Shown piece after piece: positions 14,408-52,800 of a stretch of DNA of 64,000 nt (positions are counted from its first letter, which is position 1; every line of letters begins with the position of its first letter). The notes under the pieces were generated by a model. The model ran no database searches, was not told the origin of the DNA, and was given only the letters and a program-made list of their open reading frames with translations. The DNA is from Bacteroidota bacterium (GTDB lineage Bacteria; Bacteroidota; Bacteroidia; NS11-12g; UBA955), in the NCBI GenBank assembly GCA_030834125.1, contig JAURFW010000002.1, positions 289 to 64,288 on the forward strand. Direction: 5' to 3'. Made by a program: the position numbers and the translations under genes.

Positions 14408-14427
14408 GACTTTAATATTTGAGTTGT

Positions 14428-16506: not shown

Positions 16507-16632
16507 AGTTTGAAGTGATTTTAATGTATCACAAAAATAGTTATATTAACGGATTTTACTCGTATTTCAGGGTATCATTTTGTGACAATACTTATTTTGT
16601 AATTAAGTGTTTTCGGCATATTTTCGAAATTA

Positions 16633-27365: not shown

Positions 27366-27372
27366 TTTTATA

Positions 27373-30231: not shown

Positions 30232-30232
30232 A

Positions 30233-30997: not shown

Positions 30998-31002
30998 AAG
31001 AA

Positions 31003-35937: not shown

Positions 35938-38900
35938 GAAAAGAGGATATTTTATCAATAGTTCCGTTATTACCCGCTCAGCAATATATGCTTGCTGCAT
36001 CTGTAAAAGATGGGCAATCGACCTATATTCAACAATTGGTTTTCAAGGTAAGGAATTATGACGGTAAAGCTATTGAAGAATCAATAAACAAGTTAGTTCA
36101 AAATTATGAGTGTTTTCGTTCTTTAATTCTTTTTGAAGGATTAAAACAGGCTGTTTGGGTGAGTATTAAAAATATCACTCCCAAATTCATATATCATCAA
36201 ATTAATGAAGCGGAATTGGATGAATTCTGTAAAAACAGACTTGAGCAAGGCTTTAAGTTGGATAAGGAAGTAGCTATGAAATTAGATTGGATTGAGAGCC
36301 AATCAGATAATTACCTTCTCATCACATATCATCATCTTCTATTTGACGGTTGGGGGCGTCAAAAAATTTTGAGTGAGGTGCTTTTTGCGCTTAAATTTCC
36401 CAGAGCCTCCATTAAGCCAAAACTGAATATTAATTGGTATGAAGCATGGAAACAACTCAATCATAATGAGGCTTTAAATGCATATAATACCTACCTAACA
36501 AGGTTTGATACTTTTGCAAGTCTTACACAACTAGGCCAAGGTCAAAATAAAAACTGCACACATTCCATCTCAATTGAGGAGATTCAAATTTCGAAAGCCG
36601 CAAGAAATCTAAATTTAACTCAGGCGGAATATGTTCTTTTTTCATGGGCTTGCTTTATTTCAAAATGGACAAATACAAGCAAAGTGCAATTGGGACAAAT
36701 TAAACAAAATGGCCTGATTGATAGTTGCAGAGATGGTTTTGGTCTGGGTATTCAAACCCTCCCATTTCAATTGGATATTGACTTTAATGTTACTATTGCA
36801 GAAACATTAAAAGTATTCAAACAAAGAGAGCGCAAACTAACAGATTACAGCTTTGTTGATACTACCAATGAAATTTTCCAACAGATTACTTACGATTTCA
36901 TTATTGCCTTTGAAAATTATCCAATAGAAAATTCATTGGTTGATTTTGAACATGATTTTATATTAATAAAAAATTATGATTTCTCTGAATTTCCACTCAG
37001 TTTGGCTATTAGTCCAAATAATGGAAAATTAATTTTTGACTGGCATTATAATCAAAAACAATATTGTCAAAGACAGATTGAAACGGTTGCTAAACATTTT
37101 ATTGAGTGCCTTGAAAAATTGCCGGTGAATATTGATTCTAGACTATGCAATTTGCGATTTTGGGAACCGAAACCTATACCACAATTCAAAATTAAAACAT
37201 CTCAAGAAGATTTTTTTTCAAGGATTGAGAAACATATTATTCAGGGGGGAAGAGAAGAACTCTACATTCAGCTCAAGAAATATTTTCAAAAATATAATAT
37301 AAATAGAGTTTGGATTATTGGTGACAAGCATAGCAATTCAGATTTACTCATATGTGCAGCTTGGTATTGCAAAATTGAAGTTTTAAGTCTTAATGAAAAA
37401 GAGTCCGCAGCATTCGTAATGCACCTTCATGATGAGTATTCCGCTGATCTGATTTTTACAAATGTCTCACCTTCTAGTTTTCCAAAAGCCATTTCAATGG
37501 ATTGTTTGGATAACCTACCAGAAAATCCGAATTCGAAATTATCAAAAAAATCGGATGTGGCACTTTCTATTTGTACTTCAGGATCAACAGGTAGGCCAAA
37601 GGTAGTTCAACTGAATTTAGAAAATTTAATTGCTTTTTTTGAAGCATGGGAAAAGAAATTACCTTGGAAATCAAACGAAGTTTTTGCTTCAATCGCGCAC
37701 CCTGCCTTTGATATTGGAGTAGCCGAACTTATTTTCCCACTATGGAAAGGTTTTCAAACAAAACTTATTTCAAAGGAGACGTTGTCAGATCCTATATTGC
37801 TAAATAGAGAATTACATGATGTAACAGCCTTTCATATGGTTCCTTCTTTGCTTGAGAACTGGATAGAAAATTCTCCGGCAGATAATAAAAATAGAATTGT
37901 GATGACAGGGGGGGATAAAGTGCCTTCGAATTTGCAATCTAAACTATCAAAGAAATTTCCAAACGTTCGACTATTTCAATTTTACGGGCCATCGGAATGT
38001 TCAGTTTTATCTTCTGGATTTGAAAATACAGGAGATTTTGAAAATCACTTTTCTCCTTTAGGTACAAATTTTGATCACTGCGAACTTTTTGTTTTTTCAA
38101 AAGATATTAATCAGTCTGCCCCTTTTCAAGAGGGAGAAATAATTGTTTGTGGTCCAGCTGTTGGTTTGGGTTATGCTTTCGATAATGAGGATAATAAGTT
38201 TTTCTATTACAAAGGGCAAAAGGCCTACAGGACAGGAGATTTCGGATTTTTTGATGAAAATGGGAACTTGTTTTTCAGAGGCAGAAAAGATAATCAAATA
38301 AAAATCAATGGTCAGCGAATTGAACTTTCCAGGATTGAAACTGCTTTATCAGAATGGTCGTCAATTGAACATTGGGTTACTGTCAGTGATGGATTTAAAC
38401 TTTTTGCATTTGCCAAATCTGAAAAATCAAAGATTGAGAAACGTAGACAGGATTTACAAAATTGGTTGCCTTTTTATGCAATGCCGCATTTAATCCACTA
38501 TGTGAATGAATTTCCACTCAATAAGAATGGCAAATTAGACCGGCAACAATTAATTGAGTTAGGTAAAAAATTAGTTAATGTAAATATAGATTCAGCAATA
38601 GATGCTGATATTGATTTGTTATTCAAGGAACTTTTTCCAAATAGAGTTATAAATACAGCACTTTCTTGGTATGCTAATGGATTAAACTCGATAGATGCTC
38701 TTAAATTTTCTGGTTTGCTTAAGTCAAAACTGAAATTTACTATTGAAATAAATCAAATCCTTAGTATTGAAAGACTCACATCATTGAATTCATTAAAAAT
38801 TAAAGTTAATGATGAACCAGAAGAAATCACTATCAAGCCAGGTCAGGAGCTTTATTCAACAGCTGCAAGGATTGTATTTCTATCGGAATCAGATGATCAA

Positions 38901-41900
38901 TTTTTTAAAAGTTACTGGATTAACAGCGGTATAGTTTTACCTAAAGACATTGATACCAATGAGTTAAAATCATGGATATTAAATCAGACCAATTTGCACT
39001 TAGCAGTCATTGCCAATGACAATAAATACTTTTGGAAAGGAGTTGAACCTAAATTATTTGAGATTAAAGTTAGGAGTAGAAGCGAGTTTTCAGAGTTTGT
39101 TGAAAATAAATTTTTAAGCACAGATTCTTCGCTTTTTATGAGTTTTATTGGTTTTTCTGAAGGAGAAAATTATTTAGCATTTAAGGTGAATCATGCACTC
39201 CTGGATGGTTTAGGGTTGGAATTGTTGTGGAAGAAGTTGCAAAATGATCTTAAAAGTGGTTCAAGAAATAAAATAAATCTGATTGCTCCAAAAGAGGTTG
39301 AAATAGAACAAGATTTTTGGGAAAATTATCTCCAAGATGTTGAAATTAAAACGTTGCCTTTCTCGAGACAAAACTCCTCAAAAAAGAGAGTAAAAAGATT
39401 AAATATCAAACTCAATATCCAAGAAAAGGAAAGGTTACAAAAAATTTGCTCAGATTACGATTGTAGTTTATTTGAAGCAGGATTGATAATGTATTGTAAA
39501 CTATGGAAGTATTTTTATGCTTCTAAACCTCATACTATTGGAATTCCTGTAAATTTAGGCAGTTATGGCGAAGAAAATAATATTGCTGGAATGTCAGTAA
39601 ATATTCTTCCATTTCGCACGGATAACGAAAATTCCAAGGAAATACTTCAAAACTGGCGGTTCATATTTAAAAAAAGATTTACACCATTTTCGGATATAGC
39701 ACAATTGGATAAAAACCAGAAAAATGGCCTTCCTTTTTTCAATAGCACCTATCTCTACCATGCTCAAAAAGATATAGATAATACTTTTGAAAGTATAGAT
39801 TTTGAAAGAGCACAGACGGATTATGATCTTTCATTAGATTTCATTGAAACAAAAAATGATTTGATTTTTTCTTGGGAATTTAGGTCGGATTTTCTTTCAG
39901 AAACAGCTATCAAAAAAATTCATAGATGCTTATTTAATGATGTTGACATTAAAAATGATAGTAAATATTCAGTATTTACACCAATAAAATATCAATGGGA
40001 GCAAATAGTTGAGTTGTATTCTTCAAAAACAGCGTTAATATTTAATGATAAAAATTATAGTTATGCCGAACTTGCTAAGTTGGTTTTAGACCATCAAAAA
40101 AATTATCAAAATATTACTGATGGAATTGAGATTTTGATACTAGATCGTGACGTTTATTCAATTTCAAAACTACTTTTTCATTTAATTGAAGGAATTCCAT
40201 TTGTTCCTGTTGATGCAGAAACTAAACCAGATAGGATAGAGCAAATATTAATGTTGGCGAAAGATATAAATTTAAAAGATCCAACAAATAAAAATTTACA
40301 ATATGTTATAGCCACTTCTGGAACAACGGGTATACCGAAATTGGTGGGTGTGAGTAAAAGCGGTTATGGATCTGCCGTAGGTGCCTGGAAAGAGGATTAT
40401 AATATTAATTCAAACGATTGCTGCATGCAAGCCGCATCCTTTTCATTTGATGTTTCATTGGGTGATATCGGAAGAACATTTTTCAACGGTGCTACGATGT
40501 TACTATTAAATGCAAATGAACGGAAAGATCCGATGACAATGCTTCAAAAAATTTCGAATTTTTCGGTCACTGTTTTTGAAACTACACCACTAATCGCGCG
40601 TTGGTGGATATCTGAAAATATTAAACTTAAAACTTATTCAAGTCTTAGACTTCTTATTGTTGGATCGGATAGTTGGAAAATGGAAGAAATTAGAACTTTG
40701 TGCAAATCAAAAAATAAAGAACAGAAAGTTATAAATTCCTACGGGCTATCAGAAACAAGTATAGATAATAGTTTTTTCGACCCTGATTCAGATGATCAAA
40801 CATTCTATGCTAACGAGATGCTTGTTCCAATTGGAAAGGCAATGAGTCATTGCGAAATTGACATTGTGAATTCAGAAAAGCAAAGTTTAAAGAACGGAAT
40901 AGAAGGATTTATCAATATTTCAGGTCCGGCTGTGGGCTATGGTTATTTTCTTGATGGACATTGGACAAATTCGAATCCAGAACAATGGTTGACCGCAGAT
41001 CGTGGAATTATTGATGAGTGGGGGATTTGTCATTTTAAAGGAAGATCTGACCGTCAAGTTAAGGTAAGAGGGCAACGAGTTGAATTAGAAGAAATAGAAA
41101 ATATACTTTCGATAAATTCCAAAGGAACAATTTGGCATGTTGTTGATTTTGAACATGAATTTTCAATAGAGATGGCGGCATTTTACAACGTTGAATTATC
41201 AACTATTGAAATTCAAGAATTAAAAAAGTCAATAATCAGTAAATTTCCTAGTTATTTTTTACCAACACTTTTTATTCAAATTGAAAAAATTCCTTTAAAT
41301 ATTAATGGAAAAACAGATTTGAATGCTTTAAAGAAAATCGCTCAATCAAAATTTGAACAAAATGCTGAATTAAATGAAAATGAAGAAATAATTGAGAGGA
41401 TTTTGAGTTTATACAAGCAATGTTTTAACGAATCCGCAATTGAAGATCAAAACTTTTTTAGTAATGGTAAAAATAGTTTTGATGCAATGCATTTTGTAAG
41501 GACCTGGAATAAGATTTCTAATGAAAAAATGGCGGTACATCAGTTATTTGCGGCGCAAAATTTCAGAAATCTGGCTCAAATGTTAACTTTATCAGTAAGT
41601 ATTGATATTGAAAAAAGCTCAACAAAAAAGATTTCCAAGGCTCAAGAGGCAATTTGGTTTGAAATAAAACAGGGAAAAACAACACTTTATAATCTACCAC
41701 ATATAATAGAAATTCCAAATAAGTATAATATCAAAAAGTTTAAAGCGGCTTTTGAAAATACACTGAAAGTTTGTTCATCACTATTCGTGAGGTTTGAAGA
41801 AAATGATCTTGGAGACGTTTTTGAATTACCCTTAGATTGCGCAAATTATGTACTTCCCACAATCACAATTGAAAAATTGGAAGAGTTTAAATCGCAATCT

Positions 41901-43685
41901 TTTACAACAGAAATCAATTTGACGGAAGGTCCATCCTTTGAAGCGGCATTATTAATTAGTACAAATCAATATTATTTATATTTCAATCCTCATCACATAG
42001 TATATGATGGAGGTTCCGATGCTGTTTTATTGAAAATATTTGATAATTTTTATAACGATAGATCTGAAATCCTAGAAAATTATACAGAAGTAATAAGTAG
42101 TAATACCGTTGATTGGGAATCCTACTTCAACTTAGTTTCAAAACCTGAAATTTGTTTTCAAAAAACCGATAGTTCAATACAACCTGGTTTATTTATCCCC
42201 TGTAGCAAGGAAGACTCTTCAAAGATTTATTCTATCGCAGAAAATTATCAATGTACTACGACAATTATCATTTCAAACCTATTAACTAAGGCATTGAATG
42301 AATCAGGCATTAATATAAATTGGATTTCCCTTGCAGTAGATCATCGGACCTATGATTGTGTAGGTATGCATATGCGCGCGCATCCTTTTCCAGGTTATAA
42401 TTCTGAAGAGGAATTAGATTTAAATATAGCCAAACAAAAATGGGCATTAAGCAAACTTTTTTCTGCAGCCGATCAAAATTTAATCTATCCGGATTCAATT
42501 TCTGTAGAGGCTTATCATCAGGTAGGTTTGGTTATTCAACATCCATTTTATCTTGAAAATTTAAATTATAAAGAAAGAATTGACCTTACTCGACCTAGGC
42601 TTCCATTAAGTTTGTATGTGGAGCAGATAAATGATCAATTCTTTTTCCGTTGGGAATTTGATAATAGTCAGATTTCAATGGATAAAATTAAGGAAATACA
42701 TAGTAATTTTTTCATTCTAGCTGATGAATTGGAATTTAGGGATAAAAAAATCTTACAGTTTAATCCTGTTACTGCAGCAGGTAAAAAATCGATAATTCCT
42801 ATTGACATTTTACCAGAACTAGAACAAATTTGGGTAAAATATACAGGAAGAGAAAATATCGAAACACTTCATTTTTTTGAAGCTGGTGCTAATAGTCTAA
42901 AGGCATTATTAATGCTAAAAGAAATAGAAAGGAAATTGCAAATACGCATTTCTACAGTAGATTTTTTCAAACAACCAACACTTACGTTTCTTTCAAAAGC
43001 AGTCGAAAAATTTGAATACAATGAGCTCATTTTCAAATTACAAGATGGTAATGACAGTAAAGAATTATGGCTTTTACCTCCAATTATGGGATTTGGTTAT
43101 ATTTTCAATAGTTTGAAATTACCAGATAATTTGAAAACTTTTGCCTTTAGTTACCCTGCTGCAATGGGAATAAATAAAGCTGGAAATATCGAGGAATTAG
43201 CTAGAATGCTTTTCAAAGAGCGCATTTCGGCATCAGAATTACCGGAAGAAATTACATTGCTAGGGTATTCAATGGGTGCCTTGACTGCATTTGAGTTGGC
43301 AAAATTACTCGAGGAACATAATGTAAAAGTGAAGAAATTGATAGTGCTGGACAAAACTGCACAACCTGAGTTTGGTCGAATTCTTGAACAGGTAGAGTTA
43401 AGAAGTGAACTTATGGAAATAGCAAAACAAATCGCCATAGATTCAACTGAATATAAAAGAATTATTGAATATCTTTCATCCCATGAATTGATGATCGAAG
43501 CTTATCAGCAAGTTGGGTTTTTAAATTGTCCAATTGAGGTATTCTATTGTGAAAACGGATTTCAAAAATTAGACTTTAATAAATGGAAGAGATTCACTTC
43601 TTCCGAATTACAACTCCAATCTCTAAAAAAATGTAATCATTATCAAATTCCAGATATTTGGAATGAATTGGATCTGAATTATTGA
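35934..43685 (+). CDS. NRPS protein 2: C - A - T - C - A - T - C - T - TE, carrying the terminal thioesterase.
   Basis: 2583 aa. C1 'YHHLLFDGWG' (~36330). A1 'ICTSGSTGRPKVV' (~37575), 'FYGPSECSV', 'YRTGDFG', 'GRKDNQIKINGQRIELSRIE', 'NKNGKLD'. T1 'NGLNSIDALKF' (~38679). C2 'NHALLDGLG' (~39189). A2 'IATSGTTGIPKLV' (~40308), 'NSYGLSETSID', 'GRSDRQVKVRGQRVELEEIE', 'NINGKTD'. T2 'NGKNSFDAMHF' (~41470). C3 'HHIVYDGGS' (~41991). T3 'EAGANSLKAL' (~42885). TE 'LLGYSMGALTAFELA' with GxSxG (~43263). Overlaps gene 1 by 4 nt. Confidence 0.9.
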   Translation: MRKEDILSIVPLLPAQQYMLAASVKDGQSTYIQQLVFKVRNYDGKAIEESINKLVQNYECFRSLILFEGLKQAVWVSIKNITPKFIYHQINEAELDEFCKNRLEQGFKLDKEVAMKLDWIESQSDNYLLITYHHLLFDGWGRQKILSEVLFALKFPRASIKPKLNINWYEAWKQLNHNEALNAYNTYLTRFDTFASLTQLGQGQNKNCTHSISIEEIQISKAARNLNLTQAEYVLFSWACFISKWTNTSKVQLGQIKQNGLIDSCRDGFGLGIQTLPFQLDIDFNVTIAETLKVFKQRERKLTDYSFVDTTNEIFQQITYDFIIAFENYPIENSLVDFEHDFILIKNYDFSEFPLSLAISPNNGKLIFDWHYNQKQYCQRQIETVAKHFIECLEKLPVNIDSRLCNLRFWEPKPIPQFKIKTSQEDFFSRIEKHIIQGGREELYIQLKKYFQKYNINRVWIIGDKHSNSDLLICAAWYCKIEVLSLNEKESAAFVMHLHDEYSADLIFTNVSPSSFPKAISMDCLDNLPENPNSKLSKKSDVALSICTSGSTGRPKVVQLNLENLIAFFEAWEKKLPWKSNEVFASIAHPAFDIGVAELIFPLWKGFQTKLISKETLSDPILLNRELHDVTAFHMVPSLLENWIENSPADNKNRIVMTGGDKVPSNLQSKLSKKFPNVRLFQFYGPSECSVLSSGFENTGDFENHFSPLGTNFDHCELFVFSKDINQSAPFQEGEIIVCGPAVGLGYAFDNEDNKFFYYKGQKAYRTGDFGFFDENGNLFFRGRKDNQIKINGQRIELSRIETALSEWSSIEHWVTVSDGFKLFAFAKSEKSKIEKRRQDLQNWLPFYAMPHLIHYVNEFPLNKNGKLDRQQLIELGKKLVNVNIDSAIDADIDLLFKELFPNRVINTALSWYANGLNSIDALKFSGLLKSKLKFTIEINQILSIERLTSLNSLKIKVNDEPEEITIKPGQELYSTAARIVFLSESDDQFFKSYWINSGIVLPKDIDTNELKSWILNQTNLHLAVIANDNKYFWKGVEPKLFEIKVRSRSEFSEFVENKFLSTDSSLFMSFIGFSEGENYLAFKVNHALLDGLGLELLWKKLQNDLKSGSRNKINLIAPKEVEIEQDFWENYLQDVEIKTLPFSRQNSSKKRVKRLNIKLNIQEKERLQKICSDYDCSLFEAGLIMYCKLWKYFYASKPHTIGIPVNLGSYGEENNIAGMSVNILPFRTDNENSKEILQNWRFIFKKRFTPFSDIAQLDKNQKNGLPFFNSTYLYHAQKDIDNTFESIDFERAQTDYDLSLDFIETKNDLIFSWEFRSDFLSETAIKKIHRCLFNDVDIKNDSKYSVFTPIKYQWEQIVELYSSKTALIFNDKNYSYAELAKLVLDHQKNYQNITDGIEILILDRDVYSISKLLFHLIEGIPFVPVDAETKPDRIEQILMLAKDINLKDPTNKNLQYVIATSGTTGIPKLVGVSKSGYGSAVGAWKEDYNINSNDCCMQAASFSFDVSLGDIGRTFFNGATMLLLNANERKDPMTMLQKISNFSVTVFETTPLIARWWISENIKLKTYSSLRLLIVGSDSWKMEEIRTLCKSKNKEQKVINSYGLSETSIDNSFFDPDSDDQTFYANEMLVPIGKAMSHCEIDIVNSEKQSLKNGIEGFINISGPAVGYGYFLDGHWTNSNPEQWLTADRGIIDEWGICHFKGRSDRQVKVRGQRVELEEIENILSINSKGTIWHVVDFEHEFSIEMAAFYNVELSTIEIQELKKSIISKFPSYFLPTLFIQIEKIPLNINGKTDLNALKKIAQSKFEQNAELNENEEIIERILSLYKQCFNESAIEDQNFFSNGKNSFDAMHFVRTWNKISNEKMAVHQLFAAQNFRNLAQMLTLSVSIDIEKSSTKKISKAQEAIWFEIKQGKTTLYNLPHIIEIPNKYNIKKFKAAFENTLKVCSSLFVRFEENDLGDVFELPLDCANYVLPTITIEKLEEFKSQSFTTEINLTEGPSFEAALLISTNQYYLYFNPHHIVYDGGSDAVLLKIFDNFYNDRSEILENYTEVISSNTVDWESYFNLVSKPEICFQKTDSSIQPGLFIPCSKEDSSKIYSIAENYQCTTTIIISNLLTKALNESGININWISLAVDHRTYDCVGMHMRAHPFPGYNSEEELDLNIAKQKWALSKLFSAADQNLIYPDSISVEAYHQVGLVIQHPFYLENLNYKERIDLTRPRLPLSLYVEQINDQFFFRWEFDNSQISMDKIKEIHSNFFILADELEFRDKKILQFNPVTAAGKKSIIPIDILPELEQIWVKYTGRENIETLHFFEAGANSLKALLMLKEIERKLQIRISTVDFFKQPTLTFLSKAVEKFEYNELIFKLQDGNDSKELWLLPPIMGFGYIFNSLKLPDNLKTFAFSYPAAMGINKAGNIEELARMLFKERISASELPEEITLLGYSMGALTAFELAKLLEEHNVKVKKLIVLDKTAQPEFGRILEQVELRSELMEIAKQIAIDSTEYKRIIEYLSSHELMIEAYQQVGFLNCPIEVFYCENGFQKLDFNKWKRFTSSELQLQSLKKCNHYQIPDIWNELDLNY

Positions 43686-43692: not shown

Positions 43693-46416
43693 ATGATTTC
43701 ATTAAATCAATATCAACTTCTATTTTTCAATCGCGAAATAAATTTTGGAAATTCAGCATCTAATGTGCTAAAAGGTTATGCTGAAATAAAATCTGCAAAT
43801 TTTGAAAGGCTGTATGATTCCGTAAATACAGTATTGAAAAAATCTGAATGGACCTATCTCAGCATAGATAAGAATAGCAGTAGTTGGATAATAAAAGATT
43901 CATGGAATGGAAGATTAGAGAAGTCAATATTTTTACCCGAAATAGCTATTGATAAACATTTATGGACAGTACAACTTGTTAAGGATGAAGATTCTGATAA
44001 AATTAGATTACATCTATTCCTGCATCACTGTTTAGCCGATGCACATTCTTTCAATCTTTTTTGGGATGCTGTTTTTAACCAATATCAAAATGGAATCTTT
44101 GAAATAGCACCACTTTTTCCGGAATTGAGCTACAGTAAAGGTCAATTAAATCAAAATAAAAAAAATCTACGGACAGACTTAGGAATTGGGAGCATCCGAA
44201 GAATTTCATTGAAATTCAATCAAAGAATAAAAAGGCATTTGATTACTCTTGCTAACCAAAACGGAACTAGCTTAATGTCGATGTTGCTTGAATATATTGA
44301 GAATGAACTTGAAAATTGTGAAGGTGATCTTGAAATCCCATTGAAATTAGGAATAGCACTTCGAAATCGAAGAAATGTTAATCAAAAAAATGCATTTCCT
44401 ACTGTAGTAAATTTTTTGCCATTACAGGAGGATAGCAACCTTAGTATGCAACAAAAGGTAATGCAACTGTTTCGCTATCAGGACTATCCCTTGATGAATT
44501 ACCTGAATGACAATAAACTACCATTAGCATTTAATGTGCTTTTTTCTTATCAAAAAGAATATTATTTAGTGGAAGATGGATTTGAATCAAAATTTACATT
44601 TGAAGCATCAACTAGTGATGACAATATACTAGGCATTCATCTCCTTGAATACGATGATGACAGTTTCATGCTTCATCTTGATTATAGAATTGATATTGCT
44701 TCGGAATCCTATTGGAAGTCAGTGCTTCGGAAAGTAAGTCGAAAAATTACTGCGGACTATTTAAAAATTCCTGATAATCGAGAAGTCAAGAATATTGCGA
44801 TACTTTATCCCAAAACAACTCAGTTAAATGATTTTTGGTATTATTTTGATCAAGCGCCTTCAGAAAAAATAGCATTAATATGTAATGATTATTGTTTGAC
44901 ATTTGCTGAAATTAGAAAACGCATTTCAGGGATTAAATTCAATCCTGAATTGAAACTTCATAGATTAATGCCTGAACGAACAATCGAAAATATTATTGAA
45001 TTATTGGCAGCATGGAAAAATGGAATAACGGTTACGTACCAACAATTAGATGATTTCAAAGAACCAGTAGGATCTAATGCTTCATTCGTTTTACAAGAAA
45101 CTACCGCCTATATTGCTCAAAGTAGTGGTACAACCGGTGAACAGAAAACCATTCAGATTTCATTCGATGGACTTTGTAGTCTTATTCCTGATTGGAAATT
45201 GAACTTTAAAACCGGAGATAGTTATCATCTTTGTTTGGCCGATCAAAGATTTGATGTGTTTTTTGGTGATTTACTTCGCAGTATTATTAGTGGAGAAACT
45301 ATGGTATTTGCAACTGATGATGAACGGCTGAATGCATTGAAAATTGATAGACTGTTAAGGGAATATGGTGTAAGTCATTTTGAATCTACTCCTTCTTTTT
45401 TAAGTTATTTGTTGCCAGAAATAACAGATCTTTCAGGAATCAAAGTAATAATATGTGGTTCTGAACCAATTCAAAAAGGTTTTTATGAGTCGCTTCAACA
45501 AAGCAGATTTAAAGATATTGATTTTTTTAACAGTTATGGTTTAACTGAATGCAGCATAGATACTGCAATTGCCAGGTTAAAAAGAGATAAAGAAGGTCGT
45601 TTCCCATCTGGATTTCCAGTTGGCGATCAGATAATTAGTATTAGAGATACTAAATTAGGGCTTAAACCCAAAGGAATTTGGGGAGAAATTTACATTGAAG
45701 GAAGCTGTGTTGGAATCCAATCTTGCAAAAATGATTCTTATAGAATATTCAAGACTGGAGATTGTGGAATGATAACAGAAGATGGATTAATTGTTAACGG
45801 AAGAATTAATGAAGATTTTATCAAAATAAATGGAAGAAGAGTACCTTCAGCCATGATAGAACAATTGACATCATCAATTAATGGAGTAAAGAATTGTCTT
45901 TGTATGGAAGTAAGGAACATGGCTGTACTATTTGTATTTGGTAATTCAGATGTTCAAATTATTCGAACAAGTCTCTCTAAAGTTCTCAGTCGTTATCAAC
46001 AACCAGATGATTATTTTTTCTGCTCAGAATGGCCTATCAACCAAAATGGAAAATCCGACAGAAAAAAACTCCTTGAGTGGTACCAACAGAAAAATATTAA
46101 TAAACAATCATGGCAACCGGGAACACATCCTTCAGATAAAATACTTTTTGAATGCCTTAAATCAAGAGAAAAATTATTTGGCGCTGCAAACGATTCTCTT
46201 ATTTCTTTTGGTTGGAATAGTATTGAACTATTATCATTGGCAAATGAATTGAATATGAAAGGGGTTTTTGTCCCTTTAGCTTCATTTATTCAAAATCCAA
46301 GTATTTCATTTATTCTCGAATCTGCAACTCAGAAACAAAAAATTGAAAATAGAGAAAACCCCGAAGCCGATGATTTCGACATTGATGATATATTGTCTAT
46401 ATTGAATAATAATTGA
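43693..46416 (+). CDS. NRPS protein 3: an N-terminally short C domain (candidate starter C), then A - T, and an acidic C-terminal tail.
   Basis: 907 aa. C 'LHLFLHHCLADAHS' (~44023), which sits only ~112 aa from Met1. A 'AQSSGTTGEQKT' (~45121), 'FDVF', 'NSYGLTECSIDT', 'FKTGDCG', 'NGRINEDFIKINGRRV', 'NQNGKSD'. T 'FGWNSIELLSLANEL' (Ser codon at 46219-46221). Tail '...ENPEADDFDIDDILSILNNN'. Confidence 0.85.
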   Translation: MISLNQYQLLFFNREINFGNSASNVLKGYAEIKSANFERLYDSVNTVLKKSEWTYLSIDKNSSSWIIKDSWNGRLEKSIFLPEIAIDKHLWTVQLVKDEDSDKIRLHLFLHHCLADAHSFNLFWDAVFNQYQNGIFEIAPLFPELSYSKGQLNQNKKNLRTDLGIGSIRRISLKFNQRIKRHLITLANQNGTSLMSMLLEYIENELENCEGDLEIPLKLGIALRNRRNVNQKNAFPTVVNFLPLQEDSNLSMQQKVMQLFRYQDYPLMNYLNDNKLPLAFNVLFSYQKEYYLVEDGFESKFTFEASTSDDNILGIHLLEYDDDSFMLHLDYRIDIASESYWKSVLRKVSRKITADYLKIPDNREVKNIAILYPKTTQLNDFWYYFDQAPSEKIALICNDYCLTFAEIRKRISGIKFNPELKLHRLMPERTIENIIELLAAWKNGITVTYQQLDDFKEPVGSNASFVLQETTAYIAQSSGTTGEQKTIQISFDGLCSLIPDWKLNFKTGDSYHLCLADQRFDVFFGDLLRSIISGETMVFATDDERLNALKIDRLLREYGVSHFESTPSFLSYLLPEITDLSGIKVIICGSEPIQKGFYESLQQSRFKDIDFFNSYGLTECSIDTAIARLKRDKEGRFPSGFPVGDQIISIRDTKLGLKPKGIWGEIYIEGSCVGIQSCKNDSYRIFKTGDCGMITEDGLIVNGRINEDFIKINGRRVPSAMIEQLTSSINGVKNCLCMEVRNMAVLFVFGNSDVQIIRTSLSKVLSRYQQPDDYFFCSEWPINQNGKSDRKKLLEWYQQKNINKQSWQPGTHPSDKILFECLKSREKLFGAANDSLISFGWNSIELLSLANELNMKGVFVPLASFIQNPSISFILESATQKQKIENRENPEADDFDIDDILSILNNN

Positions 46417-46432
46417 TAATATTTTAATCGTC

Positions 46433-46822
46433 ATGCATGAAATACAATTACCTCAAACAAGTTTCTACTACTTAAGAAATCATCCTTTAAAAGGAATGGG
46501 TGTATATTCATTGAGAGATTTCAAGATAGGTGAAATGATTTCAAAGAACTACGTTGCAATAATTGATTGGGAAATGGATGAAAATTCATCTTTTCAACAA
46601 CACTATCCAATGTATTGGACAGAGGAATTTGCTTGTATTGCATTTGGGATAATAAACCTTGTTAATCACAGCTCAAAGCCAAATTGTAGAATTAAAATAG
46701 ATTATGATTCTCAAACTATAGCTCTTTTAAGTAAAAAAGTAATTAATGCAGAAGAAGAATTAACAATTGATTATGGTGATGAACATTTTCCATTTAAATG
46801 TGGTAAAGTAAAAATTTATTAA
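46433..46822 (+). CDS. Small SET-domain protein, a putative protein/peptide lysine N-methyltransferase fold.
   Basis: 129 aa. 'GMGVYSLRDFKIGEMI' resembles the SET N-region G-x-G...I-x-x-G-E. 'LVNHSSKPNCRI' matches the NHSC-x-PN core with Cys to Ser. 'EEELTIDYGDEHF' matches the ELxxDY motif. It sits between NRPS genes 3 and 4 on the same strand. Confidence 0.6.
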   Translation: MHEIQLPQTSFYYLRNHPLKGMGVYSLRDFKIGEMISKNYVAIIDWEMDENSSFQQHYPMYWTEEFACIAFGIINLVNHSSKPNCRIKIDYDSQTIALLSKKVINAEEELTIDYGDEHFPFKCGKVKIY

Positions 46823-46895
46823 CCAAAGACCTTAGATGATAAAATATTAAACTAGTCATTCTGAATTTTTATTATAAATTATGTGAAAATACAAT

Positions 46896-49800
46896 TTGAA
46901 AAGGTCTGTTCTAATGAGAAATAATTACAATAAAGAAGATATTGCAGCAGTTTTCAAAACGCATTTTGCCGAACAGAGCCTTATCGTCATGGACATGGAT
47001 AAAGCGCAGAATTCGGAGTACATTGAAACAGCTCTAGTTAAAATTCAGGATCGCATTCTTCAGAAAAATGATATTGAAAACTGGGTTCAATCTATTCCGC
47101 GCTTTCGAGATGTATTTATTTATGAAAAACTGGAAGAGCCTGTTAGGGTAAGACTTAAAACAATCAACCCATCGATTGAAATTATTGATGCCAATAATTG
47201 GGATGATTCCAAAATCTTAGATTGGCTTGATACACAAGATTTGAATTTAAATATACAGCAAGGCCCATTATTCAAAATTTTCATTTTTAAAAGTGAAAAC
47301 TCCTCATATTTAGCTTGTTGTTATCATCATCTTCTTTTTGATGCTATTTCTATTCAATACGCCTTTGCTTCCTTATTAAAAGGGACTAATATTTCTTTTA
47401 AAGAATGGATACCTGTAAATGAAAATAATAAACAGATTAAAGTTGATGAAGTCGGATTTGAGATGCAAAATTTCGTTCCTCAACCGATAAAAGGAGTAGA
47501 CCAATTTTTATATGAAGAACTAGAACTGCCTGAATTGCATTACAAGGATTTTATGGCAAAATGGGCGGAGTTCATCTTTTTGGCCACAGGAGAAGATCAA
47601 ATTTGCATTGGTGAAGTTTTTAGCCTAAGAAATACAGAGCCTGCTGCGCAGGATGCTATTGGCTATTATGTGCAGACTTGGCCTTTAATACTAAAAAGTA
47701 ATTCTAGTATTAAAGAAGATATTGAAATTCAACGCTCAAAAATTCTAAAACATTTAGATAAGCCTGTACAGTCTTTATATCCCACTGGTCTTTTCGATCA
47801 TTGTTGGGTACTTGAACCAGAAATAAAAAGTGAATATAAAGCAATTTTTAGATCACGTCCACATTATTTACTTTCTATTGTAATTAAAGCAAATAATGAA
47901 GGTGTTTCACTTTGCTTTGTCTGGAATTTAAATAAAATTACTAAGCCAGCAGCTAAGGAAATAATAAATTCATTTAATGAATTTGTAAATAGTAAAAATG
48001 CGATAAAAAAAATAAATAAAGAGTCTTATCAACTTAAGCCTATCAATTATATTTGGACAGAAAAAATTAATTTAAATCCAGATAAAATTGCTGTTCGAGA
48101 TTCAAAAGGAAATAAATTAAGTTATAAGCAGCTTGAAGATCTTTCAGATTCCTTAGCATCTGTCTTGGATGTTAAAATACAAGAGCCTGTAGGAATAAGA
48201 ACATCTAATTCTGTTCTATTAATTGTTTCTATGTTGGCAATTTTAAAAAAGAGGGCAATATATGTACCCTTAGATCCAGAAATATCTGACGAAAGATTTA
48301 AATATATAATAAACGATGCCAATATTAACACTATTATCAGTGATTTAGAGGCAGTGCCTTTGAAAACAATGATTCATCCCATACAAAATAAAGTATCAGG
48401 GGTGCCAATGGATTTAAAGCCTGATTTAAATGATATCTGTTATCTGATTTATACTTCTGGAACTACGGGGCAGCCTAAAGGGTGTTCAGTAATGCAGAAA
48501 AATCTGAGCAACTTGTTTATTGGTACAGCATTGAAATTCGATTTTAAGAAAGACGATTCATGGATTCTTGCTCATAGCTATGGGTTTGATTTTTCAACAT
48601 GGGAAATTTGGGGAGCATTGCTTAATGGAGCTTCACTTTACATTCCTGACCGTAAAGATGTTAAGGATAGCTTTAAATTCTACAAAATATTACAACAGGA
48701 AGAAATAACTATACTTAATCAAACCCCAAAAGCCTTTGAAAATTTAATGATTGTTGGTGAATCAGAAGCACAATTAAGTAAACTACGATATCTGATTTTT
48801 GGCGGTGATAAATTAAATTTTCAAAAGATTTATAATTGGCAATTAAATAATGCTAAGGTAAAGGCAGTAAATATGTATGGTATTACAGAAACCACCGTTC
48901 ATGTTACTTTTAAGGAGGTTGAAGTTGAAGAATTTAGTAATATTGGCAATCCACTTCCTGGGTATGCACTTTCACTTAGAAATGTAAAAGGAAATATAGT
49001 ACCCGATGGTTTTATTGGAGAATTGTATGTTGAAGGAAGCGGCGTTTGCAATGGTTATTTCCAGAAAGAACAATTAACCGCAGAGAAGTTCGATTTTCAG
49101 AAAAACCCAACATATAGGAGTGGCGATTTGGGTTGGCGCATGAATAATGATTTCTATTATTTAGGAAGAAATGACCGTCAAATAAAAATAAGAGGATATA
49201 GGATTGAACTTGGTGAAATTGAATTTTTACTTCAAAAAGAATTTAAGAATCTTTTTAAAATACTTTTTATTAATAACAAGCTATTAGTTGCATTCCATAC
49301 TTGTCCTTTTGACATTGATAGATCCATGTGTATCTCGCTACTCCCAGAATATGGTATTCCTTCAAGGTTTATTAAATTAAAAGAAATTCCCCTTAATGTT
49401 AATGGAAAAACTGATGAAGAAGCTTTAAAAAATATTTTAAATGAAGTTCAAAAAGACAAATCAAATGGGACCGATGATTTGTTTTCATATTTTTCAAAAG
49501 TTTTAGGTAATAATTTAGACTTACACAGAAGTTTCATTGAAAATGGAGGTGATAGTATCAGTGCAATCAGGCTTATAAATACCCTTCGTAAGGATAATTT
49601 TAATCTTTCAATTCAAGATCTTTTTACAACCTCATCTCTTTCTCAATTAAAATTGAAAAAACTTAATGAGAATAGTATTAGAGAAAGTTGGATGAATGAT
49701 CCATTAATTGATACTTTAAATTTAGAAAATCAATTAAAAATTGATGGAGTATTTCCGCTAAGTGAGTCTCAAATTGGTATTTTATATGACAGTTTAGCTG

Positions 49801-52800
49801 GAACAGAAGATGTTTACATGGTTCAATTAACTTATGAAATTGGGTCTGATATTACCGTAAAACAGCTTCGCAAGGCATATTTAAATGTAATGCATGCTTT
49901 GCCAGCACTTCAACTTCAAATAAGAAAACACGAAGACACATTTCTTTGGGTATTACCCAAAGAACCTTTAGTAGAAATAGAACAGCTTGATTATTCCGGC
50001 AATCTAAATGATTTTCTTGCATCGGACTTTAAAAAACCATTTGATTTTTCTAAAAATTTAATGCGATTAAGTATTTTAACTAATGAGAATGGAAATAGTC
50101 AACTAATTTGGACTCATCATCATATTTTAATGGATGGATGGTCATTAGGGTTGTTTAGTAAATTATTATTTGAATCTCTAAAGGGTAATCCAATAATTAA
50201 GCAAACTTCATATTTGGATTTTTTATACAGCTTTAAAGACAAAAAATCATCCAATGAAACATATTGGAAATCTAGATTAGAGAAATGTAGTAATGATCCG
50301 TTGATACCATATCTAACTAAAGGTGAAGAATCGGATAATTATGGAGAGTTTGTATTAGAAATTAATGAAATCCCGTTATGGCGCGAACTTACCCATTCAG
50401 GACTAACTCAACATAATTTTGTTTATTCGGCTTGGCTTGCATTTTTAACAGCAGTTTTCAATAAAAATGAAATAAATATCGGAAATGTAATTTCTTTAAG
50501 AGAAGGTAATCTTGTTGAAGAGGTCGGTATGTTTATTCAAACTTTACCGTTTTATATGGCCACTGTTAAAGATGAATTATTTTCAGACTTTTCCGGTAGG
50601 GTGAAACATCAACTGCTCGAGGATATCGAACATAAGGAATTATCATATAAAACCCTTGAAGGAATAAATTTAAATTTAGACCATATTTTCGTTTTTGAAA
50701 ACTATCCAATTGATGAATCTGTATATGATAACTCATCTATCAGTATTGGGGAGTTTAAAGAAAGAACTGCCGCTAAATGGACCTTGATTTGTTATCCCAC
50801 TCAGAAAGGAATAAAAATTAGAACCTTGTTTCAAGGTGATTTTTATAATTCTGAATATGTAGGAGAGATAATGAGGAGGTTTGCAGAATTTATCCAAAAT
50901 ATTCATTGGGATTATAAAATAGGTTCTATTCCAAAATATATTACTAAGGCACCAATTCTGGAAGGTAAAAATAAACCTTTGCCGAAAATAGATAATCTAT
51001 TCGACTATTTTACCTCCAATGATGGTTTTAAAATTATCAGTATCAATGATGAGCTAACTGATGTCGATATTCACAATAAAACTAAAAGAATTGCGATAAA
51101 ACTCAGTGAACTTGGAATTGAAAATAATGAAGCTGTGGGAATCGACTTAAAATCAGTAAGTAATTTTGTTATTGCTGTATTGAGCATTTGGAAAGTTAAT
51201 GCGGTTCCTTGTTCAGTAGATTATCGTTATCCACAACAACGAAAATCATTTATTTGGGAAAATGCATCTTGCCGTTTTGTTATCTTAGAGAAAGATGGTG
51301 AAATATTTATTGAAACCAATGAATTTCCAAAAATGATGCAATCTGCAGATGCTTCGTTCATTCTTCATACCTCTGGATCAACAGGAATACCTAAAGGGGT
51401 TATTCAGACGAAAGACTGTTTGATTCATTTGGCTAATTGGACTGCAACTGAACTTGGATTAAACAAGAAGGATAGAATTTTAGCACTTTCCTCATTCGGT
51501 TTTGATGCTTCATATCACGAAATGATATTATGGCTTTCACTTGCAGGAACGCTTGTTGAAATGCCATACGAATCGAGACAGGATATTCAAGAAATTAGAA
51601 AATTTATTATTTCCAAACAAATAAGTATTGCTTGGATTCCTGCACGACTTCTAAATTCGATACTTGAAATTGAGCCCTTCTATTTCGATGAATGTCAATC
51701 TCTTAAACAAATTGTCACAACAGGAGAAGCATTGATTATTGGCGAAGCTCTAAGTAATTGGGTAAAGCGTGAAAATATCAGATTATTTAATTTTTATGGA
51801 CCTACCGAAACCCATGTGGTAACTGCGAAGGTTATAGATAAAAACAATATCTCAACAATCCCAGACATTGGCCAACCTATTAATAATGCCGCAATTGGTA
51901 TTTTCAACAGCGATGGGGAACCGGTACCAAAGGGATTTACTGGAGAATTATTCATTTCCGGTCCATACCTGGCTAATGGATATTTAAAAGACGAAGATTT
52001 AGATAGTAAAAAATTTGTTTATCGAAATAATGTAAGGTGGTATAAAAGCGGTGATATCGGTTGGTTTAATGAAAATCAAAATATTGAATATCTGGGTCGT
52101 TTAGATGATCAGATTAAAATAAGAGGTTATCGAATTGAGCCATTTGAGGTGGAATCTCTAATTCATAAAGTTGAGGGGGTAAAACAGGTCGCCATCGCGG
52201 TTGATAAAACAGAAGAAACAAAACTGATTGCTTTTTGGACAGGTAAAAAGATATCGGATATGGAATTTCGAAAAAACTGTTTGAAAATTTTACCAGAATT
52301 TATGATTCCCGAGGTTCAAATTTATCTCGATAGTTTGCCAAGAAATATTAATGGAAAAATTGATCGTAAATTACTGTTAGAAAATTATTTTTCAAATAAA
52401 GAAGCTACATCTAATAGTATACCTAATAGCTCGGGCTCTCGTTGTTGGAAAGCTATTTTGGGACATGAAAATTTTAGAAAAAATTCACAATTTCTGTCTG
52501 TAGGTGGTAATTCAATTAAAATTATGCGAATGCAAGCCTGGTTAGAAAAAAATTATGGAATATCTTGTACTGTAAAAGAGCTAATAATAAATCAAACAAT
52601 AGCCGAACTTGATGATTTGATTATTAAAAAAGATGCGGAAAGCACATTTTTATTACCGGATGCTATTCCCTTAAATAAGCTTCAAGATGATTTATTACTT
52701 GCAGAAGAAGGTAATTATATCTCTAAGGATTCTCCTTTTTTATTGTCTTTCACCTGCGACATGACGAAAAAATATGAAATCAATGAATTTGAAAGAGCAA

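Follow-up and report, generated by a model that had tools for sequence, protein, structure and literature searches.

An NRPS cluster with an embedded SET-domain gene

The window (the whole 64,000-nucleotide stretch of DNA analysed here) contains a cluster of nonribosomal peptide synthetase (NRPS) genes in which a short gene for a SET-domain protein, hereafter SET, lies between NRPS3 and NRPS4. The genes of the cluster are as follows.

26286..30997, + strand: precursor and accessory genes for an aminotransferase, a 4HPPD-family (HmaS-like) dioxygenase, a GlcD-like FAD oxidase, a PPTase and a PhyH dioxygenase
30961..35937, + strand: NRPS1, x-T-C-A(DLFNHAWTYK)-T-C
35934..43685, + strand: NRPS2, C-A(DIAHMGFVLK, Hpg-like)-T-C-A(DVGEIGSIDK, Orn)-T-C-T-TE
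43693..46416, + strand: NRPS3, stand-alone C-A-T, A code DVGEIGSIDK (Orn), directly upstream of SET
46417..46913, + strand: NRPS3/NRPS4 junction, a variable slot for tailoring genes, here holding SET alone
46433..46822, + strand: SET
46896..53681, + strand: NRPS4, C-A(DFWNIGMVHK, Thr)-T-C-A(DAHWVTFVVK)-T-C, likely true start ATG 46914
53681-54526, + strand: M28 peptidase, another tailoring gene of the cluster
54528-55295, + strand: class-I SAM methyltransferase, another tailoring gene of the cluster

The SET open reading frame starts with ATG and encodes 129 amino acids within coordinates that include the stop codon, exactly as given in a preliminary description of this DNA, and the three peptides quoted there (GMGVYSLRDFKIGEMI, LVNHSSKPNCRI and EEELTIDYGDEHF) all occur in its translation. 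The NRPS3 stop codon ends at 46416, which leaves a gap of 16 nt (TAATATTTTAATCGTC) before SET rather than the 17 nt first reported. A further 91 nt separate SET from NRPS4, for which there are two candidate starts, TTG 46896 and ATG 46914; the latter is the more likely and is the one that metagenome gene calls adopt. Domain annotation identified both flanking genes as true NRPSs, which upholds the original placement of SET between two NRPS genes, and SET is a gene separate from the class-I methyltransferase gene at 54528, as had been proposed. SET is co-oriented and tightly packed with the NRPS core genes in an operon-like arrangement, and a terminator scan found no + strand terminator between NRPS3, SET and NRPS4; the earlier view of a same-strand gene inside the NRPS operon therefore stands. 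A sigma-70 promoter scan, whose coverage excludes Bacteroidota promoters, returned 28 matches against 24 expected.

Nei-Gojobori dN/dS for SET was 0.03-0.26 among homologues, and stayed in this range although identity within the clade falls to 55% and dS is saturated. Base composition matched that of the cluster (z = -1.5). By these sequence measures, SET is a genuine gene under purifying selection. An artefact of recent insertion was rejected because the composition fits the cluster and deep divergence coincides with low dN/dS.

Adenylation (A) domain codes were extracted against a GrsA reference, which reproduces its published code DAWTIAAICK. Two A domains (the second of NRPS2 and that of NRPS3) read DVGEIGSIDK, a signature code for ornithine (PMC3992020), and the code is conserved at both in all orthologues. 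NRPS2 thus carries a second ornithine module together with the releasing thioesterase. The other four codes appear to be without the acidic residues that a pocket for a cationic side chain should have, and the predicted peptide would contain two ornithines, one threonine and one Hpg-like residue. Since two modules have no A domain and two A codes gave no residue call, another amine could be present. Three of the A-domain codes are unusual and were found in no searchable paper.

Fold and active site of the SET protein

The PF00856 profile matched the SET protein at 52.3 bits (E = 8.4e-14; gathering score 22.4) over profile positions 1-105 of 105, corresponding to amino acids 21-115, and was also present in all five close homologues. 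A phmmer search of the PDB returned PBCV-1 vSET as the best match (E = 8e-9, aligned amino acids 14-119) and Schizosaccharomyces pombe Set7 as the second best (E = 3e-6). We modelled the protein with AF2 from an alignment of 102 sequences, distant minimal SETs among them (pLDDT 83.1, pTM 0.78); a model built from a six-member family alignment was discarded (pLDDT 43). Foldseek comparison of the retained model with the PDB gave SET domains only among the top 50 matches, the best being S. pombe Set7 (5h6z; TM 0.78/0.83, rmsd 1.9 Å, 116 columns), and vSET (3kma) matched with a TMt of 0.84. The minimal SET fold suggested at the outset is thus supported both by the profile search that had been recommended as a check and by the model. 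NCBIfam has no model for this protein (its sole match was sub-threshold and meaningless), and PHROGs returned no match for it or for its phage-borne relatives.

The landmarks of the SET protein, all encoded within the gene, are as follows.

46493-46777, + strand: SET domain, amino acids 21-115 (PF00856, AF2 and Foldseek)
46493..46501, + strand: G21-M22-G23, N-terminal GxG SAM-binding motif (alignments)
46541..46600, + strand: SET-I insert, amino acids 37-56, including IDWEMDE and FQQ (alignment)
46604..46606, + strand: Y58, conserved active-site tyrosine, aligning with vSET Y50
46664..46684, + strand: N78-H79-S-S-K-P83-N84, NHSxxPN core for SAM binding and predicted pseudoknot strand (alignment)
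46757..46774, + strand: E109-L-T-I112-D-Y114, ELxxDY motif (alignment)

The alignments recovered all three blocks named in the preliminary description, namely the N-terminal GxG region, the core around NHS..PN and the tyrosine of ELxxDY. The NHS..PN and ELxxDY segments, which would form the pseudoknot, are present and align with vSET and MLL4, and the global fold matches. Conservation was scored against 96 outgroup minimal SETs. The residues G21, Y58, W62, G72, N78-H79, P83-N84, E109 and Y114 do not vary within the clade, and their conservation in the outgroup is 82-100%; for those with catalytic or SAM-binding roles (G21, Y58, N78, H79 and Y114) the outgroup figure is 85-99%, with Y58 at 85% and N78/H79 at 98-99%. 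Y114 is the catalytic tyrosine by alignment with vSET Y105, and I112 occupies the position of the MLL/SET8 Phe/Tyr switch. G21 is near-universal, and the arginine of the usual 'GRG' is replaced by M, I or V in the SET clade.

The protein ends 15 residues after Y114 and has no post-SET CxCxxxxC zinc cluster; its tail (GDEHFPFKCGKVKIY) holds a single, non-conserved cysteine. For this reason we grouped it with the minimal vSET-like enzymes and not with the SUV39-, G9a- or MLL-type lysine methyltransferases. On sequence and model together, the 129-residue protein is a minimal SET-domain protein of the vSET-like group. PBCV-1 vSET (A612L; PDB 1n3j, 2g46 and 3kma) is a 119-residue chlorovirus histone H3K27 methyltransferase. 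Like the window protein, it consists of the SET core alone with neither a pre-SET nor a post-SET zinc cluster, and the two share the GxG motif, the active-site tyrosines (Y50/Y58 and Y105/Y114), NHS..PN and an aliphatic residue at the Phe/Tyr switch. They are only ~30% identical, however, and vSET is viral and acts on a lysine of host histone H3, whereas the window SET is encoded on the chromosome within an NRPS operon and carries an invariant SET-I signature and a C-terminal tail of its own. Set7 is likewise a compact histone methyltransferase, but it is a eukaryotic chromatin enzyme of ~24-27% identity with no biosynthetic context.

The residues that set the clade apart are concentrated in two regions. 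Most lie in the SET-I insert (S37, Y40, A42, W46, M48, D49, F54, Q55 and Q56), and others lie in the C-terminal tail (H118, P120, K127 and I128), while the SAM-binding and catalytic core is unchanged. SET-I is a presumed element of the substrate groove in SET structures. We regard the insert and the C-terminal flank as probable elements of the substrate channel.

Clade distribution and a variable tailoring slot

Among 1.84 billion representatives, the SET clade amounts to a single cluster at 50% identity, and the next matches outside it have E-values of ~1e-16 or weaker. Every context found for the clade lies in, or derives from, one NRPS cluster family. Within this family SET occurs in five gene orders, at 55-72% identity and always in orthologous clusters.

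Order 1: NRPS3-SET-NRPS4
Order 2: NRPS3-GT2-SET-B12rSAM-NRPS4
Order 3: NRPS3-SET-PhyH-NRPS4
Order 4: NRPS4-M28-MT-SET
Order 5: MT-SET-NRPS

The start of SET overlaps the NRPS3 stop in one relative (L016), and in some others SET lies directly 3' of the cluster's class-I methyltransferase gene. Two contexts (L011 and L017) that might have represented a cluster-independent copy were rejected as such because a frameshifted remnant of the cluster methyltransferase gene adjoins SET in them.

The NRPS3/NRPS4 junction itself is variable. In orthologues it holds GT2, SET and B12-rSAM genes; SET and PhyH; an SDR, an amine oxidase and a GT (with or without PhyH); a 289-residue unknown gene; or nothing. 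SET is absent from L020, L021, L022 and contig 3s449I3Y, which have identical A-domain codes; absence was scored on the available sequence, in which L020 and L022 reach no further than NRPS4 and none covers the region upstream of NRPS1. Absence of the reading frame from homologous clusters had been proposed as grounds for abandoning the SET assignment, and the gene is indeed missing from many orthologues. We read this as accessory status instead, because the SET clade was found nowhere else. That SET is absent from clusters with the same codes, and shares its slot with tailoring genes, argues for a decoration enzyme rather than a part of the assembly line; SET is therefore a probable accessory tailoring gene, like the GT, PhyH and rSAM genes found in the same slot.

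The same turnover raises the question of whether SET is merely a passenger of phage or mobile origin, which landed in a recombination-prone cluster junction and travels along with it, and whose function (such as methylation of a nucleoid protein or of a protein of a grazer or host eukaryote) is unrelated to the peptide. The closest relatives outside the clade are minimal SETs of phages and giant viruses (E 1e-16 to 1e-14, 36-39% identity, 116-124 residues), and the nearest outgroup members lie in phage-like contigs (with dUTPase or Phage_tail_X genes, or on a 174-kb contig), which makes a phage-derived passenger conceivable. Consistent with this, the best viral structural match is a SET from an uncultured Caudovirales phage (A0A6J5L8Y2, TM 0.80/0.81), a DDE transposase lies directly upstream of SET in one relative (L008), other bacterial SETs sit among IS elements, and the junction is a clear hot spot of gene turnover. 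The clade, however, occurs only with this NRPS cluster family, and does so across at least five rearrangements; it has kept a dN/dS of 0.03-0.26 at 55% identity and saturated dS; its composition is fully ameliorated to that of the cluster; and in the window no mobile-element genes flank SET, which also has no PHROG match. The phage-type SETs (contexts P0007 and P0008) differ in lying among phage genes, in lacking the clade signature and, for most, in keeping the 'GRG' arginine. We thus consider it unlikely that SET is a functionally unrelated gene of such origin that simply rides along in the junction. Searches with tblastn of GenBank phages and PLSDB plasmids returned distant SETs only (<38% identity); one of these, on a Streptomyces plasmid, was inspected and lies outside any biosynthetic context.

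Candidate substrates of the SET protein

The usual view of SET enzymes is that they methylate lysines of proteins, mostly of histones, and N-methylation of natural products is attributed to Rossmann-fold or radical-SAM enzymes. The characterised prokaryotic SETs (Chlamydia NUE/cpnSET, Legionella RomA/LegAS4, Burkholderia BtSET, Bacillus anthracis BaSET and Methanosarcina Go1-SET) are SAM-dependent lysine N-methyltransferases, and all act on proteins, namely histones or chromatin-like proteins, mostly as secreted pathogen effectors (PMC3980110). They carry PF00856 like the window SET, but none is reported in a biosynthetic cluster, whereas the window clade does not extend beyond a single NRPS cluster family in environmental Bacteroidota. 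Reviews likewise list SET enzymes solely as protein methyltransferases (PMC9539859).

This record could suggest that SET tunes the assembly line by methylating a lysine, either in a carrier or other domain of an NRPS protein or on a different enzyme of the pathway. In favour of such a target, every SET characterised so far, including those from bacteria, methylates proteins (PMC3980110), SET is translationally close to NRPS3, and K792 of NRPS3, five residues past the A10 lysine, is lysine in three clusters with SET and glutamine in three without. Against this, orthologous assembly lines with the same codes work without SET, which indicates that it is not needed for NRPS function. Lysine is also not enriched among the columns that covary with SET (10 of 127, approximately background, and 0 in NRPS4), and SET is not always beside NRPS3. 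We regard a target on the NRPS or another pathway protein as distinctly unlikely. The alternative originally offered, methylation of a carrier-protein lysine, is likewise unlikely given that SET is dispensable in orthologous clusters.

Biosynthetic clusters often carry resistance genes, and SET enzymes modify proteins (PMC3980110), so SET could also provide immunity by methylating a lysine on the producer's own target such that the peptide no longer binds. Every producer should need immunity, however, and clusters for the same predicted peptide core lack SET. Moreover, no candidate target is encoded nearby, and the SET slot is filled elsewhere by tailoring genes (GT, PhyH, rSAM and oxidase) and not by resistance genes. 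A role in self-resistance is thus highly improbable.

Our best reading, which we hold at about even probability, is that SET N-methylates the side chain of a peptidyl ornithine. In this model, a minimal vSET-like SET, predicted to be active, would have been taken into the NRPS pathway as an optional tailoring enzyme. The peptide assembled by the NRPSs would contain two ornithines together with threonine and an Hpg-like residue, and a side-chain amine of this peptide, either as the released product or as a carrier-bound intermediate, would thread the SET channel towards SAM and be N-methylated. The likeliest site would be the delta-amine on one or other of these ornithines, which may be methylated more than once. 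We infer the peptide as substrate, the ornithine N-delta as the atom modified, and the timing and degree of methylation. The preliminary description had proposed N-methylation of a lysine or ornithine side chain; the two ornithine-code A domains, one of them directly upstream of SET, strengthen the ornithine part of that idea, and the methylation itself stays a proposal.

Methylation might instead precede peptide bond formation, with SET acting on free L-ornithine or L-lysine, or on ornithine held by the NRPS3 carrier as an aminoacyl thioester. SET does immediately follow the stand-alone, ornithine-activating C-A-T protein in two arrangements; in three others, however, it is apart from NRPS3. 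Both ornithine A domains keep the canonical code in clusters with and without SET, which suggests that plain ornithine is probably what is activated, and known SETs bind a substrate residue within a peptide backbone (PMC9539859). We consider modification of the building block quite improbable.

An ornithine target has its own difficulty, in that ornithine within a peptide is not a substrate for the human enzymes SETD7, SETD8, G9a and GLP (PMC5700997, PMC7764450). Methylation of peptidyl ornithine by SET would thus need a shortened or otherwise re-tuned channel. The clade-specific invariants read from the alignment fall in SET-I and the C-terminal flank, the presumed channel elements, and we take this distribution as a point in favour of peptide side-chain methylation. 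We tentatively propose, at somewhat less than even probability, that a Bacteroidota NRPS cluster took up a minimal SET of phage type, whose specificity was re-tuned away from protein lysine and towards the ornithine delta-amine in a peptide.

N-methylornithine is a known natural-product residue, made in enteropeptins by an Fe-S methyltransferase (PMC10373908), and literature on methylornithine in nonribosomal peptides gave only RiPP or unrelated matches. The usual enzymes of peptide N-methylation are class-I (Rossmann) M domains and stand-alone methyltransferases. The outcome proposed for SET is the same, but fold and mechanism differ, SET being a class V beta-clip/pseudoknot enzyme in contrast to Rossmann or radical/Fe-S methyltransferases.

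The closest precedent by role is fungal. GigC, a SET-domain N-methyltransferase of the epichloecyclin RiPP cluster of Epichloe festucae, adds one or two methyl groups to a lysine side chain within a small cyclic peptide, as demonstrated by knockout and complementation, and its target residue is conserved in related clusters with or without the methyltransferase gene (PMC10540207). GigC and SET, likened here by role and not by sequence, both belong to peptide natural-product clusters and share the accessory pattern. They differ in that GigC is eukaryotic and modifies lysine in a RiPP, whereas the window SET is bacterial and belongs to a nonribosomal peptide pathway with ornithine as the available basic residue. 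In our literature search, no SET enzyme was described as tailoring an NRPS product, nor did any bacterial SET tailoring enzyme come up. The original statement that SET enzymes are essentially unreported in NRPS tailoring stands within this search, with GigC as the one tailoring precedent we found (PMC10540207).

If the re-tuned-SET reading is correct, this would be the first bacterial and the first NRPS-associated SET acting on a small-molecule natural product, and a natural example of a SET channel shortened by one methylene. If SET decorates the nonribosomal peptide, the tailoring enzymes of bacteria would gain a fifth class of methyltransferase. SET would then also supply a new marker for genome mining (PF00856 beside NRPS genes, now easily dismissed) and a biocatalyst of very small size, probably with simple cofactor needs, that N-methylates side chains of cationic peptides. 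Were ornithine the target, comparison of the clade with vSET would reveal which residues determine the side-chain length that the SET channel accepts, a question that to our knowledge has so far been approached with synthetic substrates only. The cluster family, with an invariant core of six A domains and a swap-in tailoring slot, is a clean natural experiment. Its hosts are uncultured, freshwater or estuarine, Saprospiraceae-like Bacteroidota of unexplored chemistry, with one related Saprospira sp. MAG among the relatives, and a T9SS sorting-domain gene is found among the cluster neighbours.

Identity, fold and relatives of the SET protein

The open reading frame at 46433-46822 (+ strand, ATG start, 129 aa) lies exactly where the preliminary description placed it, and all three peptides quoted there are present in its translation. 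It closely follows the NRPS3 gene, as had been claimed, although the gap measures 16 nt (NRPS3 ends at 46416) rather than 17 nt. Its product matches the entire PF00856 profile (E = 8.4e-14, 52.3 bits; gathering score 22.4), and phmmer identified chlorovirus vSET (119 aa) as the top PDB sequence match (E = 8e-9), with S. pombe Set7, MLL and SET8 next. Foldseek comparison of an AlphaFold2 model (102-sequence alignment, pLDDT 83.1, pTM 0.78) revealed that all top-50 PDB matches were SET domains, including Set7 (TM 0.78/0.83, rmsd 1.9 A) and vSET (TMt 0.84). The SET pseudoknot is predicted on two grounds: the fold matches globally, and both segments that would form the knot are present. The SET identity of this product is fully supported.

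The catalytic set (G21, Y58 (vSET Y50), W62, G72, N78-H79, P83-N84, E109 and Y114 (vSET Y105)) is invariant among the close homologues of this protein (i.e., the clade), and its conservation in 96 outgroup SETs is 82-100%; the catalytic apparatus is intact. Other clade-invariant residues are rare in the outgroup, namely S37, Y40, A42, W46, M48, D49, F54, Q55 and Q56 in the SET-I insert and H118, P120, K127 and I128 in the C-terminal flank; the usual Arg of the 'GRG' motif is lost in the clade. In known SET structures, the SET-I insert and C-terminal flank form the substrate groove and lysine channel. Because the clade-specific residues sit in these elements, their pattern would fit unchanged methyl-transfer chemistry with a changed substrate. 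The MLL/SET8 Phe/Tyr-switch position is Ile or Leu in the clade, as in vSET (phmmer alignment to PDB sequences, ELTYDY versus ELTIDY). Under the switch rule, an aliphatic residue here would allow more than one methyl transfer, which weakly suggests that clade enzymes may do so.

Relatives of the SET protein fell into five clusters only (96, 72, 60, 59 and 55% identity, 129-138 aa) in a word-indexed search of 5.8e9 proteins, and exhaustive HMMER against 1.84e9 50%-identity representatives recovered a single family representative (E = 2.5e-48). The second-best HMMER hit (P0006, 799 aa, E = 5e-21) has eight separate SET-like stretches, which look like minimal SET modules arrayed in tandem; further single-domain hits (E about 1e-16) were generic 110-130-aa SETs. 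The two nearest outgroup SET proteins are both encoded in phage-like contigs, one of them beside dUTPase and Phage_tail_X genes in a 174-kb contig; among predicted viral structures, a Caudovirales SET matched best (TM 0.80). The clade appears to be a minimal SET of phage type that settled in one cluster family.

The cluster and its predicted peptide

The window derives from a Bacteroidota chromosome; it includes mfd and encodes a protein bearing a T9SS type-B sorting domain. The NRPS cluster (~29 kb, ~31% GC) is flanked by DNA of 35-39% GC. GC is 30-33% across 26000-56000, ~5-7 points below the left flank (1-24000, 35-39%), and GC3 is 0.18-0.27 compared with about 0.30; these lower values suggest that the entire cluster may be a horizontally acquired island. 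All cluster genes are on the + strand.

Features of the cluster (coordinates, strand, content; domains by core-motif mapping)
5' genes, +, aminotransferase, 4HPPD-family (HmaS-like) dioxygenase, GlcD-like FAD oxidase, PPTase, PhyH dioxygenase
30961-53681, +, core in the order NRPS1, NRPS2, NRPS3, SET, NRPS4
NRPS1, +, x-T-C-A-T-C; A code DLFNHAWTYK
NRPS2, +, C-A-T-C-A-T-C-T-TE; A1 code DIAHMGFVLK (Hpg-like), A2 code DVGEIGSIDK
NRPS3 (43693-46416), +, C-A-T; A code DVGEIGSIDK
SET (46433-46822), +, 129-aa SET-domain protein
NRPS4 (start TTG 46896, or ATG 46914 in metagenome gene callers), +, C-A-T-C-A-T-C; A1 code DFWNIGMVHK, A2 code DAHWVTFVVK
53681-54526, +, M28 peptidase
54528-55295, +, class-I methyltransferase (MT)

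NRPS1-NRPS4 together contain 6 A, 8 T, 9 C and 1 TE domains. The TE lies in the second of the four NRPS genes, and gene order is therefore non-colinear with assembly; trans-loading seems likely, and NRPS3, which stands alone and activates Orn, may supply it. An A-less C-T-TE closes NRPS2. Near its N-terminus, NRPS1 has an orphan T (GGDSI, aa 231) preceded by a ~220-aa region in which motif scans detected no NRPS core motif.

Stachelhaus codes were taken from alignment to GrsA-PheA, using a reference sequence that reproduces the published code DAWTIAAICK. The NRPS4-A1 code is the canonical Thr code. The Hpg-like reading of NRPS2-A1 is consistent with the HmaS-like cassette. NRPS2-A2 and NRPS3-A share DVGEIGSIDK, the ornithine signature (PMC3992020), and the peptide product is thus predicted to contain two ornithines. 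One Orn-activating protein, NRPS3, is encoded immediately 5' of SET, and in the remaining A domains, acidic residues of the kind that would accommodate a basic side chain appear to be missing from the pocket.

An aryl-glycine (Hpg/Phg-like) precursor cassette occupies 26286-29617. Its 4HPPD-family enzyme scores 218 bits, below the HPPD equivalog cutoff of 277 bits, as would fit a hydroxymandelate-synthase-like paralogue. The GlcD-type FAD-linked oxidase appears to carry out the oxidation step; in actinomycete Hpg pathways, this step falls to an FMN-dependent hydroxymandelate oxidase. On the 3' side of the cluster, an 848-aa ORF (57513-60059) had no Pfam/NCBIfam match at E <= 1e-5, and the preceding 147-aa ORF (57060-57503) had no Pfam match.

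Gene order and turnover between NRPS3 and NRPS4

We compared loci carrying relatives of the cluster or of SET, assigning the arrangements of the SET-carrying loci by blastx against the window proteins; none of these related loci reaches 5' of NRPS1.

Gene orders in related loci (percentages relative to the window proteins)
Window and identical metagenome contigs: NRPS3-SET-NRPS4
L005: NRPS2(68%)-NRPS3(66%)-GT2-SET(60%)-B12/radical-SAM-NRPS4(72%)
L008: L005 order plus one further gene and a DDE transposase directly 5' of SET
L010, L016: NRPS3(71-74%)-SET(72%)-PhyH-NRPS4
L012 (Saprospira sp. MAG): NRPS4(61%)-M28(68%)-MT(78%)-SET(59%), then unrelated genes
L018: MT(77%)-SET(59%)-NRPS
L020 (NRPS3 69% identical), no SET: NRPS3-[SDR, amine oxidase, WbsX-type GT, PhyH]-NRPS4, slot 12698-16774
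Contig 3s449I3Y (64%), no SET: NRPS3, 289-aa gene without known family, NRPS4, M28, MT, opposite-strand gene
L021 (55%), no SET: NRPS3-NRPS4-M28, cluster end, junction 12713-12776
L022 (54%), no SET: NRPS3-[SDR, amine oxidase, GT]-NRPS4-M28, slot 12707-15817

The start of SET overlaps the stop of NRPS3 in L016. Among SET copies dN/dS is 0.03-0.26 (Nei-Gojobori), and GC and GC3 of the window SET lie within 1.5 sd of 390-nt windows of the NRPS genes. The low dN/dS and matching composition indicate that SET is old in the cluster and under selection; it is mobile within the cluster, and none was seen outside it. That SET is an unrelated passenger gene is unlikely. Two loci of identical sequence (L011 and L017) were considered as SET without NRPS association, which tblastx ruled out: a frameshifted ~200-bp remnant of the 3' end of a class-I MTase gene (L011 1801-2004) lies directly 5' of the intact SET. 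Because this remnant adjoins SET, we read these loci as a broken (decayed or rearranged) MT-SET cluster edge. The remnant also adjoins a PLD-like gene and small ORFs.

The DDE-family transposase of L008 (8283-9191) lies inside the cluster, and may be an agent that moves SET between positions. In L005 (10415-11986) and L008 (9625-11196), a 523-aa B12-binding radical-SAM enzyme is encoded 18 nt 3' of SET. Members of this class are often C-methyltransferases, and such GT2-type clusters may combine SET, B12-rSAM and perhaps class-I enzymes, three different classes of methyltransferase.

The NRPS3 family far exceeds the SET clade in size, comprising 38 clusters, ~30 of them at >=52% identity; as a crude estimate, cluster counts place SET in about one of every five or six variants. 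For the reverse test, we inspected four orthologous clusters for SET. With six SET queries, tblastn found none in L020-L022 even at E <= 10 (window control, E = 1e-88), where the sequence of L020 and L022 stops within NRPS4 or shortly past it, and a SET after the MTase (as in L012) would therefore escape; for 3s449I3Y, absence is from gene calls only. SET is missing from the full NRPS1-to-end span of at least two clusters. All A-domain codes readable in these four loci equal those of the window, Orn codes included. The NRPS3/NRPS4 junction (window 46417-46913; L005 8972-12332) is a swap-in slot for tailoring genes, with SET as one alternative occupant.

Candidate substrates of the SET protein

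The preliminary description proposed N-methylation of Lys/Orn in the NRPS product, which is plausible and gains strength from the Orn modules and cluster-restricted distribution of SET. Canonical Orn codes occur in SET+ and SET- clusters alike, which argues that the A domains would activate plain ornithine; methylation of the free or carrier-loaded amino acid is accordingly very unlikely. In the most economical reading, SET would then N-methylate the peptidyl ornithine side chain after activation. We consider it probable that SET acts in some way on the NRPS product or an intermediate, and give peptidyl ornithine N-methylation specifically about an even chance.

Assembly lines predicted to make the same peptide operate without SET, which argues against a role in NRPS function and makes methylation of an NRPS or pathway protein quite unlikely; for the same reason, producer immunity is highly improbable. 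Lys accounts for 10 of the 127 columns co-varying with SET presence in NRPS2, NRPS3 and NRPS4 (about background), and for none in NRPS4. The sole such Lys in NRPS3, K792, lies five residues past the A10 catalytic lysine (NGKSDRKK) and is Lys in three SET+ clusters and Gln in three SET-; with three versus three sequences, this may be phylogenetic noise.

In reviews, SET domains figure only as protein methyltransferases (PMC9539859), and the characterised bacterial and archaeal examples (NUE, RomA/LegAS4, BtSET, BaSET and Go1-SET) all target histones or chromatin proteins (PMC3980110). Full-text literature on SET enzymes in NRPS or biosynthetic-cluster tailoring, or in Orn modification, gave only fungal chromatin-regulation papers, except for GigC, a SET-domain protein of a fungal epichloecyclin RiPP cluster (PMC10540207). 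The claim that SET tailoring is essentially unreported thus holds for NRPS in this literature but is tempered by this RiPP precedent. N6 mono-/dimethylation of Lys in a small cyclic peptide was lost on GigC deletion and regained on complementation, and the authors point out that the target Lys remains conserved in the absence of the MTase gene (PMC10540207). GigC acts on a RiPP Lys but, like the window SET, is optional among clusters; small-peptide decoration by SET is thus possible, its optionality is expected, and the window SET is not categorically new. With histone peptides, SETD7, SETD8, G9a and GLP leave ornithine unmethylated (PMC5700997; PMC7764450), which speaks against the ornithine reading; if Orn is the target, the clade would have overcome a chain-length barrier that stops canonical SETs. 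N-methylornithine is known from enteropeptins, where its source is an Fe-S methyltransferase (PMC10373908) rather than a SET enzyme.

Across loci, the slot holds SET; GT2+SET+B12-rSAM; SET+PhyH; SDR+flavin amine oxidase+WbsX-type GT(+/-PhyH); the 289-aa gene; or nothing. The six A-domain codes stay constant despite this turnover, forming a natural combinatorial-tailoring series. In SET-less L020 (12722-14597) and L022 (12707-14559), the slot pairs a flavin amine oxidase (PF01593) with an opposite-strand short-chain dehydrogenase; speculatively, these could be aimed at the same Orn amine, with oxidative deamination/reduction instead of methylation.
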